A stretch of 64,000 nucleotides of DNA from Escherichia phage MN04, in the sequence record MT129654.1, one strand, 5' to 3'. This document shows positions 7,409 through 54,280 of this stretch, piece by piece; position 1 is the first letter of the stretch; each line of letters begins with the position of its first letter. A model generated the notes under the pieces. That model did not search any database. It saw only the letters and a program-made list of their open reading frames with translations, and was not told the origin of the DNA. The position numbers and the translations under genes were made by a program.

Positions 7409-7569
7409 AGTTTAAAAAACAGTATACAATACGGTAGGGTAGTGATAAGATTACCCTATCAAAACAAATGAGTGAAATGGAGAATAAAAATGTTTGCACC
7501 TTATATTATGATTACAGTTATCGTTATCTGTCTGTATCTTTTAATTAAAGCTTGTTAAGGAGATTTAAA

Positions 7570-7791: not shown

Positions 7792-8287
7792 TCAAGAACT
7801 TGAATTTGAAAAAGGTAAATGGTACTATTTTAAAGATGACGCGGCAGAAGCTGAATTCCGTAAGCTGAATTCCCATAATATTAGGACTCCTAATAATTCT
7901 TCTATAGCAGATATTATTGTCAATTCTGAAGGTTTTTGCCCTGTTAGATTAGCGGCAGGTTATGTGATGAACGTGGACTTGGCTTATGGTGATAACATTG
8001 ATATGGTTTTATATCCAAGCGAGCGTAAATTCTTTACGGAAATGGTTGTAGTTGACAGTGAAGACGAATGGGCCGAAGATGGTTTTTCTGAAGAAGACCG
8101 GTCTGAACCGAGTGATTTCCCTTTGACTAAAATCACTATGGAAATGGGTTTAGTTGGCGGTGAAGACCAGTCTGAAGACGCAGCCCCATATGAACCGAGT
8201 GATTTCCCTTTGACTAAAATCACTATCTCCAATAATTCTGAAGCCTGGACTGTTTACCGGATGTTGAAAGCCCACTTTAAGGAATAA
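7784..8287 (+). CDS. Hypothetical acidic protein with internal tandem duplication (goF position)
   Basis: 167-aa ORF from ATG 7784; contains duplicated peptide EPSDFPLTKIT encoded by a perfect 35-bp direct repeat. Confidence 0.4.
   Translation: MLNQELEFEKGKWYYFKDDAAEAEFRKLNSHNIRTPNNSSIADIIVNSEGFCPVRLAAGYVMNVDLAYGDNIDMVLYPSERKFFTEMVVVDSEDEWAEDGFSEEDRSEPSDFPLTKITMEMGLVGGEDQSEDAAPYEPSDFPLTKITISNNSEAWTVYRMLKAHFKE
8105..8226 (+). repeat. Intragenic direct repeat (2 x 35 bp perfect, period 87 bp)
   Basis: gaaccgagtgatttccctttgactaaaatcactat at 8105-8139 and 8192-8226. Confidence 0.85.
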
Positions 8288-19420: not shown

Positions 19421-19438
19421 GGTTTAGTGCAAAAAAGT

Positions 19439-19467
19439 GTTTACATCTGCTTTAAACATGATACTAT
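19439..19467 (+). promoter_or_regulatory. T4-type early promoter with overlapping MotA-box-like TGCTTTA (copy 1 of a 56-nt cassette)
   Basis: GTTTAC 19439-19444, tgcttta 19448-19454, TACTAT 19462-19467. Confidence 0.6.
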
Positions 19468-19515
19468 AGACCTATCAAATAAATGAACTGAAACAAACAA
19501 CCCGGAGATACAAAA

Positions 19516-19743
19516 ATGAAATTTAAAATCGAAAACGAAATCGTTAAAGCTAAAAATGCTCTGACTGCTAACAAACTGGTTGTAGATGGTATTGAATATG
19601 ATATCTGTGGAGTTCGTGAAGAAAAACCCGGTGTTCTGACTTTCTTCACAATGATTTTTAAATTTAAAGGTGACACAGAATTCAAACAGTTTGATTTTGC
19701 CCCTGAAGACGAAATCGAAGTTCGTAATCTGAACATTAAGTAA
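19516..19743 (+). CDS. Hypothetical protein flanked by duplicated promoter cassettes
   Basis: 75-aa ORF with SD ggag upstream. Confidence 0.45.
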   Translation: MKFKIENEIVKAKNALTANKLVVDGIEYDICGVREEKPGVLTFFTMIFKFKGDTEFKQFDFAPEDEIEVRNLNIK

Positions 19744-19782
19744 GTACTTTATTAGAGCTCTTGAAAAAGAGCTCAAAATAAA

Positions 19783-19811
19783 GTTTACTTCTGCTTTAAA
19801 CATGATACTAT
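19783..19811 (+). promoter_or_regulatory. T4-type early/middle promoter of motA (copy 2 of the 56-nt cassette)
   Basis: GTTTAC 19783-19788, tgcttta 19792-19798, TACTAT 19806-19811; 55/56 nt identical to 19439-19494. Confidence 0.6.
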
Positions 19812-19848
19812 AGACCTATCAAATAAATGAACTGAAACGGAGATTAAA

Positions 19849-29186: not shown

Positions 29187-32100
29187 TTATTCAATCCACT
29201 CAAATTTAACGGATTTAGTGACCGGGTCAGGAATAATGCGAACGTTACCAATACGTAACCAATCAAGGATTGTAATGTTACCCATTGTAGCGTTATCAGC
29301 AGGCAATGCACCAACCTCTTCCGCAGAAGGAGGGTTATCTGCGGTATAGACCATAGAGAACGTAGTCCATGCGTTTTTATTTTTCTGCCAGGTGCGAGTA
29401 TAACGAATAGTACCACCATTCAATCCTGTAGGATAGCACACCCAATCCTGATAACATGAATCCAATGTATTACCAAACTGTGTTAACGTACCAGGATATT
29501 TAACTTCCTTATCACGAACAGAATAATCAAACCAAGTACCACGTAATTTCTGACCTGATGTACCGAGAACTTCGTCACCAAAACTACCGTCTTCGTTACG
29601 ATAACGAATAGCCGGGGAACTAAATGCACCCGTTTCTGTCAACCAACCAGAAGCATTCCATATCTCATCAGAAACACCTGCAGGTTTAGTTTGGACCGTA
29701 TCGATATTAACCTGACGTTTAGTTTTCATCGTCCAATAACCTGGGAACAGGTTAAATGTAGCCGAATCATTGATATCGACAGACCAGAAGCCAACTGTTT
29801 CTGCAGTAGGGGCCTGGGATGCTAATGTAGGTTTAACACCAACAGAGCGGACGTATTTTTGAGCAACCAAACCATTGTTTGCCGATACTTGCCCTGTAGA
29901 AACGATAGTACCTGAAGTAGTTACGTTTTGCAATGAAGACAGAGCAGAAGCATTTAGTGTGGTTGTAGAAACACCGTTAGAAGTGGTTATACCTGTGATA
30001 TTAGCATTCTTAGAAATACTAATGGAACCACTATTAACAGCAAAGTCACCAGTCGTATTAAAGGTCCAGTAGGAAGATTCTAAAGAACCCGGCGATGGAA
30101 GATAATGTATTTTAAAATCACGAGTTCCATCGTTTACAGTGCCTAAAGAGAATGTACCTTGCCCTAAACGTTGTTTAACAATAGGATGGAACTTGGCATC
30201 CGGGGTCGAATTTATCTCGGCAAAAATCGGAGCTAAAGTATCGCCTTGAGAGTTCCAAGTACCGGCACCTGACTGTGGTCCTACAAATTTAATAGATTTA
30301 CCTGAGCTAACAGATACATCATTTTTAAAAGTAGAATTCCCGGTTACTTCCAGAGAACCTAAAATAGTGTTGCCGGTAATATTAGCAGTACTAGAAGACA
30401 CCAGAGGAGCCGCCAGGTTCAATTGTTTGGTCAGGATTAAAGAACCATTAACCGTTTGGTCGACGTCTCTACGAATGAACTGAAGTGAATCCAGACCATC
30501 CAATTTCTCGGAGTTCACAGCCGTAGCATTTATAGGTAAAAAGTTCTGTAAAGTTTTATTCATCTCGTAAGATGAAACCGCATAACCTGTTTTAGGATAG
30601 TTGGCTGCATTCAGAACAGTATCGTCGTTCTCATAAAGGCCTGTACCTGAGTTAAATTTAACACCAGAACCGGTAACTTTATTTCCTGAGTAAGTCAAAG
30701 CACCTTCGGTCAATTTAACAAATCCACGACGAAGTGCAGTAGCTTCCCAAGTGGTTTCGGACTGTACTACATATTTTAAACCAGAAGGGCTTACAGCCAG
30801 AACTTTAGAAGTTCCTGCAGTGGTTTCGGTATTCGTTGCAACACGAATAATACCTTCAGAACTTTCAGTAGATTTTTTAGAGTGTAATTTCAAAGGAGTG
30901 ATGATGGTTTTGTCATCAGTGCCAACATTGACTTCGGTCTGGGTAGCCAGACGAGCGGTACCACGTTGGGTCTCATTTGCTTCTCTAATATCTAGTGTAT
31001 AATGGTTCCATAAGGTTCCTGATTCAATCAAACCGCTGGCTGCTGAGACAGAAGTTCTAGCAGTATCATTAAGTCTTGTTTTAATTTTCAACGGAGTTGA
31101 AATAACATTATCTAACGTACCAGCATCAAATTCTGCTTGGGTTGCAATTCTAGCAATACCAGTCAATCCTTCCGTAGCTTTCCTGTCATTTAACGTTTTA
31201 GGCGTTACCGCACGAGTATAATCTGTTCCAGTATCGGTCTCTACTTGCGTAGCAATTTCAATTAACCCTGTACGAGTATCAAGAGCCACACGGGCATGCA
31301 ACGTTTCAGGAGAAACCGCACTGTTAGCAAATCCGCTAGCAGACTGTCCAGTATTAACTTCTGACTGGGTAGAAAGATATACTGTACCTTGTTGGGCTTG
31401 AGTAGCTTTATATTGGTCAAGTGCTTTAGGAGAAATAACCAAATTGCCTACGTTCTTATTATAAACGTTAGTACCTACAGTGTCCCTAGCAGTCGCAGGA
31501 GTGGTGTCCACCGTAGAGGTATATTTTACAATACCTGAAAGACTTTCAGTGCCCTGGCGCGTCTGTAGCTTCTTAGGAGTAATAATGGTGGTATCGTCAA
31601 CACCAGCATCAGTTTCCTGTTGCGTAGCAATTTCAGCTACACCACGACGAGTTTCGGTTGCAGTACGTTCGTTTAATTTCTTAGGAGAAATAATCAAATC
31701 GTCCTGGAATGCGAAGGTTGTGTCCTGGTTCACCTGAGCAGTAGTAGCAATACGAGCAATACCACGACGAGTTTCAGTGGCAACACGATTGGCTAAAGTC
31801 TGCGGAGTAATTGCAAGTTCTTTTTCAGGATTATTTTCATGGTCGACGTTTGCCTGGGTCTGAGACGCAAGGGCAATAACACCTAGACGAGCACGAGTTA
31901 AATCATCCTTAGAATCAACACGTTCTACCGTAGGAACGTTCTGAGCAACAACCCAATATTTACCACCTGTAGTGGTGTCTTCGATATAACTCAGTTCAAT
32001 AACCGGGGTATAACTTATATTACCATTAAAGGTCAATACATCATTCAACACCCATTCAGTATCTGGTGGATATTCAGAACGTTTAGGGAACTGGAGCAAT

Positions 32101-52099: not shown

Positions 52100-52348
52100 A
52101 TGAACAAACATCTGAATCACGCTCTTGAACTGCAACGCAACGCTTGGAACAACGGTCACGAAAACTACGGCGCATCTATTGATGTTGAAGCCGAAGCACT
52201 GGAAATCCTGCGTTATTTCAAACATCTTAATCCGGCTCAGGCTACTCTGGCTGCTGAATTGGAAGCAAAAGATGAACTGAAATATGCTAAGCCTTTGGCT
52301 TCAGCAGCTCGTAAAGCAGTACGTCATTTTATTATTACCCTGAAGTAA
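52100..52348 (+). CDS. rIII: rIII lysis-inhibition accessory protein
   Basis: 82 aa from ATG 52100; MNKHLNHALELQRNAWNNGHENYGASIDVEAEALEILRYFKHLNPAQ matches T4 RIII as remembered. Confidence 0.9.
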   Translation: MNKHLNHALELQRNAWNNGHENYGASIDVEAEALEILRYFKHLNPAQATLAAELEAKDELKYAKPLASAARKAVRHFIITLK

Positions 52349-52702
52349 AATCGAGGAGCCGTCGAACTGTCTGATTAATGATTTGCGAATCATTATAGTT
52401 TTAAGACCCCCGGCAGTTTTACGGTGTACCTCTTGAATGGTATTTTATAGCGGCAAGTGCATGCTACCCCGAGGTGATGGCCAATCGGGAGTACGCCTCA
52501 AGGCCTATATATCCATCAGTATATATCTTATCCTCGAGAAATCGAACCCGGAACCTTTAAGCTAACGGTGTGCAACAGATAAGAGCTATGATGACGAGGT
52601 TTACGGTTATCCTGTCGTTAAATATCTAAAACCTATGTTCCCCTTGAGGGCTTGCGCAGGCAATGCCAATAAGTCCTGCATCCTAATTTAAGAGATTTAA
52701 AA
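52349..52702. other. ORF-free, comparatively GC-rich intergenic island of unknown function
   Basis: about 350 bp with no ORF of 60 codons or more on either strand; several inverted repeats (taatgatt/aatcatta, cctcaagg/ccttgagg, gcagg/cctgc). Confidence 0.5.
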
Positions 52703-52864
52703 ATGGCTAAGAAAGAAGTTAAAGTAGTTGACGGAACCTCTAAACGCGCTGGTTACAAGCGTGCGTCTAACAAGCGTATCAATCAGGTAGTTGATAAGCT
52801 TCAAGCTCGTGCTCGTGCAGTATTGCGTGCAGATGCTGCTTGCTTCGGTAAAGTTATTGCATAA
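52703..52864 (+). CDS. Hypothetical small basic protein
   Basis: 53-aa ORF below track cutoff (MAKKEVKVVDGTSKRAGYKR...), followed by strong terminator. Confidence 0.4.
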   Translation: MAKKEVKVVDGTSKRAGYKRASNKRINQVVDKLQARARAVLRADAACFGKVIA

Positions 52865-52869
52865 GTTAT

Positions 52870-52897
52870 GGGACTCTTCGGAGTCCCATTTTTGTTT
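52870..52897 (+). terminator. Rho-independent terminator
   Basis: gggactcttcggagtccc hairpin followed by atttttgtttc. Confidence 0.75.
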
Positions 52898-52915
52898 CTA
52901 AATCTTTAAAAAAGG

Positions 52916-52944
52916 GTATACATCTCCAGTAGGCATGATACTAT
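52916..52944 (+). promoter_or_regulatory. Early promoter variant (GTATAC -35) with inverted repeat spanning the leader
   Basis: GTATAC 52916-52921, TACTAT 52939-52944; arms tctccagt / actggaga. Confidence 0.5.
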
Positions 52945-52985
52945 AGACATGTACCAAATAATACGAAAACAAACTGGAGAATAAA

Positions 52986-53318
52986 ATGAAAACTGTAAAC
53001 CTGAATGCATCTGTTAAAGCTAAATGTTTCAACGGTGAATATCAAGAAACCATGTGGGTCCTGACTGCAGTTGAAGGTGATATCATCGAAGTTGAAACAA
53101 CTGAAGGTATGGGTACTGATTTCACATTTACCATCGAGCTTCACAACTTCTTTACAGGTTGGATTTATGAACTGAAAACTGTAATTACTGGTCGTATTGA
53201 AGAAAACAAAATTGGTGAATTCTATTACGTTAATGCCCGTACACGTGCTGAACGTCTGATTGCTCAGATGAAAAAAGTTGGTAAACTTGATATGAAAAAT
53301 TGGAATGTTGTGAAATAA
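52986..53318 (+). CDS. Hypothetical protein
   Basis: 110-aa ORF. Confidence 0.45.
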   Translation: MKTVNLNASVKAKCFNGEYQETMWVLTAVEGDIIEVETTEGMGTDFTFTIELHNFFTGWIYELKTVITGRIEENKIGEFYYVNARTRAERLIAQMKKVGKLDMKNWNVVK

Positions 53319-53321
53319 ATG

Positions 53322-53350
53322 TTTTACTTTGGTACAGGTTGTGTTATTAT
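53322..53350 (+). promoter_or_regulatory. T4-type early promoter with palindrome across the -10
   Basis: TTTTAC 53322-53327, TATTAT 53345-53350 inside ggtacaggt ... acctgtacc. Confidence 0.5.
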
Positions 53351-53391
53351 AGACCTGTACCAAATAATACGAAAACAAACTGGAGAATAAA

Positions 53392-53757
53392 ATGAACTAC
53401 ATCAACTTCGAACGTAAATATGTTTCTAACGGTATCGCTGGTTCTTCTGAAGTTATTTGTCTGTGGAAACACAACAACGGCACAGTGTGCGAAATCGAAC
53501 AGTGCATGACTCCTAACTACGTTTATATGCGCTTTGAAAATGGTATCACGGTTTCAATCACTATGGAAGGTTCTACTTTTAAAATCGCTTTGGATGATGA
53601 TTTCCGTCAACGTGATTTAGGTACCCATCCTTGCTGGAACGGTGATAATCGTAAGCTTCTGGTTAAAACCTGGATTCGTCACATCCTGAGCAACCGTGCT
53701 AAACCTGAACACCTGGAAGCAATCTTTGATGTAGTTCTGAATGAATTTGATATCTAA
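53392..53757 (+). CDS. Hypothetical protein
   Basis: 121-aa ORF with leader identical to that of the 52986 ORF. Confidence 0.45.
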   Translation: MNYINFERKYVSNGIAGSSEVICLWKHNNGTVCEIEQCMTPNYVYMRFENGITVSITMEGSTFKIALDDDFRQRDLGTHPCWNGDNRKLLVKTWIRHILSNRAKPEHLEAIFDVVLNEFDI

Positions 53758-53798
53758 TCTTAAAAATGGAGGCTTCTGCCTCCTTTGAGGAAAATATT

Positions 53799-54086
53799 AT
53801 GTTTATGACCACTTATTTCGATACTCGTAAAAATTTCTGTGAAGTTGTCTTCTCTAAGGCAGGTAAAGATGTTCCTGCTGACAAACAGCCTACTCGTGAA
53901 TCCATTAAGGCCTATGCTGATGTGGTTTGTCCAGTAGAATTCCGTACAGTCAATGGTCGTGACACCCTAGCAATCACTAAGCTCAACCGCGATATTAACA
54001 TCGACCCAAGTGTCGCCCGCGAAGTCAATACTTCTGACATCTACGGCGGTAATGTTAAATCACATGGATTCCAGATGAGGTTCTAA
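53799..54086 (+). CDS. Hypothetical protein
   Basis: 95-aa ORF from ATG 53799 preceded by ttgaggaaaatattatg. Confidence 0.4.
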   Translation: MFMTTYFDTRKNFCEVVFSKAGKDVPADKQPTRESIKAYADVVCPVEFRTVNGRDTLAITKLNRDINIDPSVAREVNTSDIYGGNVKSHGFQMRF

Positions 54087-54280
54087 TGCAACTATTCTTA
54101 TCACAAACCGTTCAGTTAAAAGGTGTAGGTATTCCTGGTATGATTTCAAAGGTTTTACCTGCTTTTAAATTGGGTAATGCTACTATTAAAGAAGCCTACA
54201 CGGTCCTATGGGTCGATGGCACTGAAGACGTTCGCATGGGTTCTGAATTGTCTGTAATCAAATGTTTGAAGCGAGGATAA
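54086..54280 (+). CDS. Hypothetical small protein
   Basis: 64-aa ORF. Confidence 0.35.
   Translation: MQLFLSQTVQLKGVGIPGMISKVLPAFKLGNATIKEAYTVLWVDGTEDVRMGSELSVIKCLKRG

Follow-up and report, generated by a model that had tools for sequence, protein, structure and literature searches.

Twin leaders with a RegB-type site upstream of genes 30.8 and 30.7 of Escherichia phage MN04 probably belong to two adjacent PeSL-type early-gene cassettes

Analysis of a 64,000-nucleotide stretch of Escherichia phage MN04 (MT129654.1; hereafter the window) suggests that genes 30.8 and 30.7, two small, unrelated accessory genes that a JS98-like Dhakavirus carries in its hyperplastic rIII-gene 30 interval, are driven by two cassettes of the promoter-early stem-loop (PeSL) type, each made up of a stem-loop, an AT-rich stretch, a T4-type early promoter, a leader, a Shine-Dalgarno (SD) sequence, and an ATG. 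Both mRNAs would begin with the same unstructured, A-rich 5' untranslated region (UTR) of about 35 nucleotides (nt), ending in GGAGAAUAAAA-UG and thereby carrying the SD together with a perfect RegB/S1 site. We regard it as likely that the locus as a whole is explained by two adjacent PeSL-type cassettes with a copied leader, a shared RegB site, and shared segments that serve as homology for recombination. The 4 kb around the repeated leader are 98 to 99% identical to JS98-group phages (Dhakavirus, Straboviridae) NC-G, JS98, and JS10, and the order of genes on the plus strand (cd.2, cd, 31.2, 31.1, 31, rIII, 30.9, 30.8, 30.7, 30.6 ... 30.1, 30 [ligase]) agrees with the placement in the rIII-gene 30 interval given in an earlier note on this DNA. 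The T4 orthologues of 30.8 and 30.7 show 78% and 93% amino acid identity, respectively, to the window proteins, and in T4 both genes belong to the early class at the RNA as well as the protein level (PMC9697503, supplement).

The earlier note had described an identical leader upstream of the two open reading frames (ORFs), and the 37-mer on which it was based does occur exactly at 52952-52988 and 53358-53394, twice in all in the window; no match was obtained in 100 dinucleotide shuffles, with up to three mismatches allowed. The similarity extends beyond this 37-mer (Table 1): two copies in direct orientation, at a spacing of 406, are 95% identical over 55 nt around an exact core of 41 nt, and each spans the -10 box, the predicted +1, the 35-nt A-rich leader, the SD, and the ATG with two further bases of the ORF. 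Within two bases of the ATG, identity between 30.8 and 30.7 falls from 100% to random. Three layers can be distinguished in the repeat: a 5' part that forms a hairpin arm, (C/A)TGTACCAAA; a middle of about 20 nt, AAATAATACGAAAACAAACT; and a 3' RegB/SD part, GGAGAAUAAAA(UG). The 20-mer AAATAATACGAAAACAAACT, which is the nonconsensus portion of the leader, has no further occurrence in the window when as many as four mismatches are tolerated. The term "duplicated promoter/leader" therefore applies to the -10-proximal part of the promoter and to the transcribed leader, but not to the -35 boxes and spacers, which differ. In the same way, what was copied as a "cassette" is regulatory DNA; since the two proteins are unrelated, no gene cassette is repeated.

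The last 11 nt of the repeat, GGAGAAUAAAA, are identical to the published T4 consensus for RegB/S1 cleavage, the 11-nt target of which has been given as GGAGRAYARAA with GGAGAAUAAAA as the T4 optimum (Durand et al. 2006, PMC1702504). Four exact copies of the RegB consensus are present in the 64 kb (0.08 expected), every one of them in an early leader. The candidate site is single stranded by folding and lies 6 nt upstream from the ATG in an early-gene initiation region; in T4, the SD of 30.7 is a documented RegB cleavage site (PMC9409239). The RegB/SD segment has been kept at both genes in T4, RB69, VR26, Moon, and PG7 (with one change in the 30.7 copy of PG7), and thus in most T-even genera sampled, while some Dhakavirus 30.7 copies have GGAU. 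Judged by its sequence, the segment is a shared functional motif. RegB homologues with 58 to 60% identity are encoded by the Dhakaviruses CLB_P2 and VR5. From the sequence, together with the T4 data on the orthologous 30.7 site, strong immediate-early translation of 30.8 and 30.7 would be expected, followed by a coordinated shut-off once RegB cuts the SD. In VR5, ESCO10, and PSD2002, ..AAGGAUAAUAAAAUG replaces ..GGAGAAUAAAAUG at the end of the 30.7 leader, giving GGAU followed by the strict A-rich consensus; rare GGAU sites can still be cleaved by RegB (Durand et al., PMC1702504).

That each ORF lies behind an early promoter of its own, as had been proposed, is supported by the promoter matches, by the depositors' annotation of the orthologous promoter in TuIa, and by the early expression of the T4 genes. 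Orthologues of P30.7 are visible in T4, RB69, and VR26. From the spacing, the predicted starts are G52951 and G53357, 7 nt after each -10 box and one base into the exact repeat; because they fall at the beginning of this repeat, the two mRNAs would share an identical 5' UTR of about 35 nt. The leader RNA appears to be unstructured, with a minimum free energy of 0 to -0.7 kcal/mol that all 200 of 200 shuffled sequences equaled or surpassed. An upstream ORF starting at ATG 52949 in copy 1 (11 codons, stop TAA at 52982) was rejected because no SD precedes its ATG, which is located no later than the predicted +1, and because copy 2 as well as LHE83 and ESCO10 have CTG or TTG in its place. Upstream of P30.8, the stem-loop that follows 30.9 was found by a terminator scan and is strongly folded (-15.2 kcal/mol, z -5.3). 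Across the window, about 21 to 23 sites of the T4 early-promoter type are present on the plus strand (e.g., 940, 5670, 16082, 37923, 45915, 49647, 52916, and 53322), with conservation continuing past the -10 box (TATAGACCTATCAAC). In the TuIa record (AJ621579.1), the minus_10 and minus_35 labels are apparently swapped, with GTTTACTCT at 78-86 and TACTAT at 101-106.

RNA that is read through from upstream would behave differently from RNA initiated at the two promoters. The P30.8 helix (8 bp, perfect, with a duplex energy of -14.7 kcal/mol, in a region with a z score of only -2.1) would mask the SD/RegB site in such RNA, and the 12-bp hairpin at P30.7 brackets the -10 box; the helices would form solely in read-through RNA, because their 5' arms sit in the promoter spacers. 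The 3' arm of the P30.7 hairpin coincides with the beginning of repeat copy 2. The segment 53300-53400 folds with -22.4 kcal/mol (z -3.2), and a 75-nt region of it reaches a z score of -4.05. Of 9 genera, 8 have an equivalent hairpin at P30.7 that reaches significance (z -3.4 to -7.3); the arms comprise four unrelated sequences, and in Moon (z -6.4) and PG7 (z -7.3) the 3' arm covers the SD, which it does not reach in the window. These spacer-arm stem-loops may represent the "SL" components of the two cassettes, with insulation or attenuation of read-through as their probable role. Imperfections in the helices, examined as a test of strand, comprised 3 G.U, 0 A.C, and 5 others, too few cases for a decision. 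In 14 of 23 early cassettes, a helix of 7 bp or more joins the -35/-10 spacer to sequence downstream of the -10 box, and in four of these (5670, 16082, 45915, and 52916) the 3' arm lies over the GGAG of the SD. A search of 52300-54200 against Rfam gave a subthreshold mir-12 match on the P30.7 hairpin (E 0.81, 19.9 bits versus a gathering threshold of 55), which we take as chance.

Could the likeness simply be the generic T4-type consensus of early promoters and ribosome binding sites (RBSs) that all early genes have? The window does contain an early-promoter family of about 10 to 20 members with the extended shared core GTTTAC..CATGATACTATAGACCTATCAAC, to which P30.8 belongs, and the final motif GGAGAATAAAATG is also present at 7479 and 37969. 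P30.8, however, follows the family only up to TATAGAC and then switches to its special leader: beyond this point the canonical family goes on with CTATCAAC, whereas the 30.8 and 30.7 leaders go on with (A/C)TGTACCAAATAATACG. When 231 pairs of early promoter-plus-leader cassettes from the window were compared, the longest exact run in common had a median of 8 nt and a 95th percentile of 18 nt, and the promoter-family consensus yields at most 26 nt, as against 41 nt for the adjacent 30.8/30.7 pair and 49 nt for another adjacent pair (19439/19783). The earlier note had named a similarity limited to the generic promoter consensus as the outcome that would speak against duplication; the comparison gave far longer identity, and together with the uniqueness of the leader middle it makes this alternative very improbable. 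An artefact of sequencing or assembly is more improbable still, to the point of being negligible: both exact copies are also found in JS98, Bp7, vB_EcoM_005, and CLB_P2, with one mismatch in QL01, IME281, and IME08, and two exact copies occur in 3 of 6 IMG/VR contigs, and presence in independently sequenced genomes argues that the repeat is real. A tandem duplication of gene and promoter, of which the repeat would be a remnant and 30.8 and 30.7 diverged paralogues, would fit the adjacency, common orientation, and similar size of the genes (110 and 121 amino acids [aa]) and the two bases shared after the ATG. The proteins, however, gave no BLASTP alignment even at an E value of ≤100 and belong to separate Pfam families, the identity ends within two bases of the ATG, and the T4 leaders are dissimilar although the genes are orthologous, all of which leaves common descent of the two genes highly unlikely.

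A different question is whether the whole leader is held identical by selection for recognition of both mRNAs by a sequence-specific trans-acting factor, which could be a translational repressor such as RegA, a different RNA-binding protein, or a small or antisense RNA. The exact identity of 41 nt in several Dhakaviruses, the single-stranded and accessible state of the leader, and the existence of a second lineage, a Providencia phage, with twin leaders at the same genes would all be compatible with such a factor. Within genomes, the 30.8 and 30.7 leaders are 0.96 identical in Dhakavirus (longest exact run, 41 nt) and 0.92 identical in Providencia phage PSTRCR_127 (46 nt exact, in a sequence unrelated to the Dhakavirus leader), as compared with about 0.8 in Mosigvirus (15 nt) and 0.44 to 0.56 in T4, VR26, Moon, and PG7 (8 to 18 nt). 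Conservation of the leader middle does not extend across genera; this part is specific to each lineage, and the T4 leaders share only the SD-ATG part (GGAGAATAAA-ATGAA), which marks the 41-nt twin leader as a feature of the Dhakavirus lineage. Moreover, the Dhakavirus copies drift independently of each other: a single substitution affects the 30.8 copy alone in QL01 and IME281 (G to T) and in IME08 (G to A), and the SD segment has been replaced in the 30.7 copy alone in the three phages with GGAU named above, while in LHE83 the leader identity reaches further upstream. The leader sequence is also confined to this locus, which rules out a dispersed mobile element. We consider conservation of the entire leader by a trans-acting factor distinctly unlikely; since the middle is lineage specific and the copies drift independently, the long identity is better explained by copying within the Dhakavirus lineage than by constraint, and since the T4 genes are similar to those of the window while the T4 leaders are dissimilar, it is younger than the genes. 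The repeat in PSTRCR_127 (L021; genes at 865 and 1301) is an independent one of 46 exact nt, ATTATATAACCTCAGTAAGCAAATAAACAAACGGAGTCTAAAATG, upstream of the genes at the 30.8 and 30.7 positions, and this phage has a promoter-straddling palindrome of its own (13 to 14 bp).

Within the Dhakavirus lineage, the 30.8 cassette could have received its leader copy either through gene conversion or through crossover or reintegration between cassettes, and the sequences point to 30.7 as the probable donor and 30.8 as the recipient. In four genera, the element CCTGTACC supplies the 3' arm of the P30.7 hairpin; a pairing partner for it exists only there, and it is missing from the 30.8 leaders of T4 and VR26; this argues for the direction from 30.7 to 30.8. 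A more specific origin, which we hold to be rather unlikely, is that the twin leader is the scar of a Campbell-type integration, in which a small circle (leader, 30.8 ORF, upstream half of P30.7) would have entered a JM10/TuIa-like genome of the arrangement P30.8-leader-30.7 by recombination inside its leader, thereby duplicating the leader around the insert. If this were true, then, together with masking of the SD/RegB site on read-through RNA, each early gene would amount to a self-contained plug-and-play cassette for both transcription and translation, and the system would be a recombinase-free analogue of integron cassettes in T4-type phages.

The copied-leader account is further supported by the relatives of the window, in which breakpoints lie inside these same regulatory elements, in line with the previous suggestion that the interval is prone to recombination. 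CLB_P2 is identical to the window (100%) up to ...GGAGAATAAAATGAAAA, resembles VR26/JS09 across the 30.8 ORF, and is window-like again from GTTTACTTTGGTACAGGTT. When CLB_P2, IME08, and PSD2002 are compared with the window, 30.9 and 30.7 have 88 to 100% nucleotide identity (97 to 100% in CLB_P2 and IME08), and 30.8 has no detectable similarity; the two gp30.8 alleles are 37% identical as proteins. In TuIa, AV109, and G2285, 30.8 is deleted, and a 30.8-type promoter and leader are fused directly to the start codon of 30.7, which is what a crossover between the two leaders should produce; AV114, SQ17, and others gave matches similar to this fusion, seen as matches only. JM10 is a chimera: a Mosigvirus P30.8 contributes the -35 box and spacer, and beyond a junction at the -10 box the leader matches that of the window exactly. 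In JS10, both 30.8 and 30.7 are missing, and P30.8 is joined to the canonical family leader before 30.6; the right-hand boundary of the missing 30.8-30.7 module is the GC-rich stem-loop between 30.7 and 30.6. The shared DNA segments may thus act as portable homology for phage recombination, leading to replacement of ORFs, deletion of ORFs, and chimeric cassettes.

On the basis of their sequence, the 30.8 and 30.7 elements fit the published PeSL cassettes and are of a kind already known. In RB49 and phi1, PeSLs combine a sigma70-like early promoter with an AT-rich stretch, a stem-loop, an SD, and an ATG, and occur in hyperplastic regions with small variable ORFs (Arbiol et al. 2010, PMC2839356). 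The stem-loop is often located between the -35 and -10 boxes or over the -10 box; crossovers have been located to the interval from the -10 box to the ATG, and deletion of an ORF between tandem elements leaves one chimeric element (PMC2839356). The window elements likewise combine a T4/PST-type promoter at proper spacing, a stem-loop in or next to the promoter, an AT-rich stretch, and a 3' SD with a start codon, and they lie in a hyperplastic region with indels and replacements between close relatives and with breakpoints inside the element. The resemblance to the RB49/phi1 PeSLs thus lies in the composite intergenic element, the hyperplastic setting, and the small variable ORFs flanked. Here, a T4-type promoter (GTTTAC/TAYWAT) takes the place of the near-perfect TTGACA/TATAAT of RB49 and phi1; the stems are not polyG/polyC, and the identical segment is a transcribed leader with a RegB site. 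T4/PST-type PeSL promoters have the consensus TTTACW..TAYWAT, which is shared here, and the T4/PST and nt-1/KVP40 PeSLs are also tied to ORF exchanges between close relatives (Comeau, Arbiol, and Krisch 2014, PMC4122927). Cassette 1 has its stem-loop just upstream of the promoter, as in PST and T4, while cassette 2 differs in having it astride the -10 box, in the RB49 style; the 2014 study does not seem to treat the 30.8/30.7 pair or JS98-type phages.

The read-through helices also resemble a known T4 arrangement. In the T4 genes e, soc, 49, and I-TevI, hairpins sequester the RBS, and their 5' arm lies upstream of the start of the proximal promoter, so that only distal transcripts form the helix over the SD (PMC3014915). 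P30.8 of the window is similar by position (weakly, with the z score of -2.1), as is P30.7 in Moon and PG7. In the known cases, however, the promoters are late and expression is delayed, whereas both promoters here are predicted to be early, and the P30.7 hairpin of the window stops short of the SD. Another parallel is found in the morons of lambdoid phages, genes inserted into a phage genome as autonomous units with a promoter and a terminator; conserved flanking regulatory sequences of their own are not considered to be their means of movement (discussion in PMC2839356).

The orthologous T4 locus has itself been an object of study. A 2006 report by Truncaite et al. (Virology 344:378; cited in PMC9409239 and PMC1702504) is said to have described, in T4 DNA preceding ligase gene 30, a pair of early promoters, RegB sites at the SDs of both 30.8 and 30.7, a rho-independent terminator after 30.9, and a stem-loop. 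The TuIa record, in which the promoter and RBS were annotated by the depositors, comes from the work of the same authors.

Several observations weigh against the account of two PeSL-type cassettes with a copied leader. The transcription starts are predictions from spacing. In contrast to the T4/PST-type PeSL layout, no stem-loop immediately precedes P30.7, and the hairpin at P30.7 is doubtful as a terminator because it has no U-run. Among 21 promoters, complementarity between spacer and cognate leader (-9.2 kcal/mol, versus -6.9 kcal/mol for noncognate combinations; p ~0.017) is in only modest excess. A tblastn search with T4 RegB gave no regB match within the 64-kb window. With regard to recombination, the observed deletions are in Mosigvirus and TuIa, where the homology is shorter. 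A simple 30.8 deletion in a Dhakavirus was not found: all 44 of 44 full-length GenBank phage matches include 30.8, and IMG/VR gave no case. The reciprocal junction was likewise not found in GenBank phages or IMG/VR. As no sequenced Dhakavirus has the simple deletion, recombination between these two particular copies is inferred and not observed.

Taken as a whole, the locus offers a natural series of accessory-gene exchange, comprising an intact pair, an allele swap, a single-gene deletion, a chimeric cassette, and a double deletion, and the breakpoints lie every time in short regulatory islands, namely, the -10 box, the SD-ATG segment, or a hairpin arm. The apparent duplication would be in part a conserved functional motif, the perfect RegB/S1 site, and for the rest the result of recent copying. 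For annotation, 30.8 is best regarded as a polymorphic slot with alleles that are about 37% identical; for phage engineering, the breakpoints indicate safe boundaries for insertion or replacement. A T4 specialist would find nothing here surprising.

Table 1. Features of the 30.8-30.7 locus (positions are those of the window)
Feature	Position	Strand	Remarks
Terminator-like stem-loop GGGACUC-UUCG-GAGUCCC with T-run	52868-52889	+	Just after 30.9; upstream stem-loop of cassette 1
AT-rich stretch tttttgtttctaaatctttaaaaaag	52890-52915	+	Upstream of the P30.8 -35 box
Early promoter P30.8	52916-52944	+	-35 GTATAC (52916-52921), 17-nt spacer, -10 TACTAT (52939-52944)
5' arm TCTCCAGT	52923-52930	+	In the P30.8 spacer; pairs with ACTGGAGA at 52973-52980, covering the GGAG of the SD/RegB site
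Repeat copy 1	52936-52990	+	55 nt; exact core 52950-52990
GGAGAATAAAA	52976-52986	+	SD and RegB/S1 consensus (11/11) at 30.8
Gene 30.8	52986-53318	+	110 aa; Pfam PF06019 (Phage_30_8); polymorphic ORF between the two repeat copies
Early promoter P30.7	53323-53350	+	-35 TTTACT (53323-53328), N16, TG-n-extended -10 TATTAT (53345-53350)
Promoter-straddling hairpin	53328-53364	+	12 bp; arms TTTGGTACAGGT (53328-53339) and ACCTGTACCAAA (53353-53364) bracket the P30.7 -10 box
Repeat copy 2	53342-53396	+	55 nt; exact core 53356-53396
GGAGAATAAAA	53382-53392	+	SD and RegB/S1 consensus (11/11) at 30.7
Gene 30.7	53392-53757	+	121 aa; Pfam PF06919 (Phage_T4_Gp30_7)
GC-rich stem-loop GGAGGC-TTCT-GCCTCC	53768-53783	+	Between 30.7 and 30.6, followed by GAGGAAAATATT-ATG; -15 kcal/mol, z -3.25

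We also noted that the spacer between rIII and 30.9 is more conserved between genera than the genes on either side. Its modules A and C (52349-52445 and 52586-52702, plus strand) are about 93 to 98% identical among the window, T4, RB69, and VR26, as against 83% for rIII and 75% for 30.9, and about 1000 phage records match them, mostly without annotation. Coding function of these modules is unlikely because of frame-breaking indels. Module A folds as a long hairpin. In module C, the motif GAGGGCUUGCG precedes a stem that lies directly upstream from the 30.9 start and reads GCAGG..CCUGC in coliphages and GGGAGC..GCUCCC in Kpn6N, PG7, and PS2.

The middle module of this spacer (52449-52592, plus strand) is an unannotated structured RNA of about 135 to 144 nt with strong covariation. 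In an alignment of 16 distinct sequences from Dhakavirus, Gaprivervirus, Jiaodavirus, Karamvirus, and Muldoonvirus and from IMG/VR contigs, 39 base pairs were paired in 99.0% of cells, and 14 pairs had compensatory double changes, compared with 4.0 ± 1.5 in shuffled alignments (0 of 500 as high) and 1 to 3 in slid registers. G.U pairs assign the RNA to the plus strand, and the stretch GCUAACGGUGUGCAACAGAU is invariant. It is about 95% identical in Klebsiella Jiaodaviruses, the gp30.7 of which is only 49% identical, and it is missing from T4, RB69, and Bp7, where this place is either without an insert or occupied by another one. A 42-codon ORF that overlaps the RNA is broken in VR26. No Rfam match at an E value of ≤10 and no tRNA were found for this segment, and a covariance-model search revealed no second copy in the window and no likeness to T4 rnaC or rnaD.

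Other repeats occur elsewhere in the window. The 30.8/30.7 pair had been called a second cassette-like duplication, and this holds, the first being an adjacent pair of early cassettes at 19430-19494 and 19774-19838 (plus strand), which share 65 nt at 94% identity with 49 nt exact, have an upstream stem-loop and T-run each, and flank a 75-codon ORF (19517-19742). Downstream of the ligase gene, collinear repeats (57708-57990/59805-60087, 58084-58178/60181-60275, and 59496-59530/61644-61678) with 75 to 83% identity and a spacing of 2097 to 2148 bp look, from their sequence, like two tandem paralogous genes. A direct repeat of 50 nt (8090-8139 and 8177-8226) has 88% identity and a spacing of 87, and a three-copy family of 68-nt repeats at 31249-31811 (63 to 74% identity) is probably internal to a coding region. 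In the ESCO10 record (OM386655.1), product names in the rIII-gene 30 interval look misassigned, apparently shifted from elsewhere in a T4-like template: rIII is named "thymidine kinase," 30.8 "ABC transporter ATP-binding protein," 30.6 "valyl-tRNA synthetase modifier," and 30.4 "site-specific RNA endonuclease."

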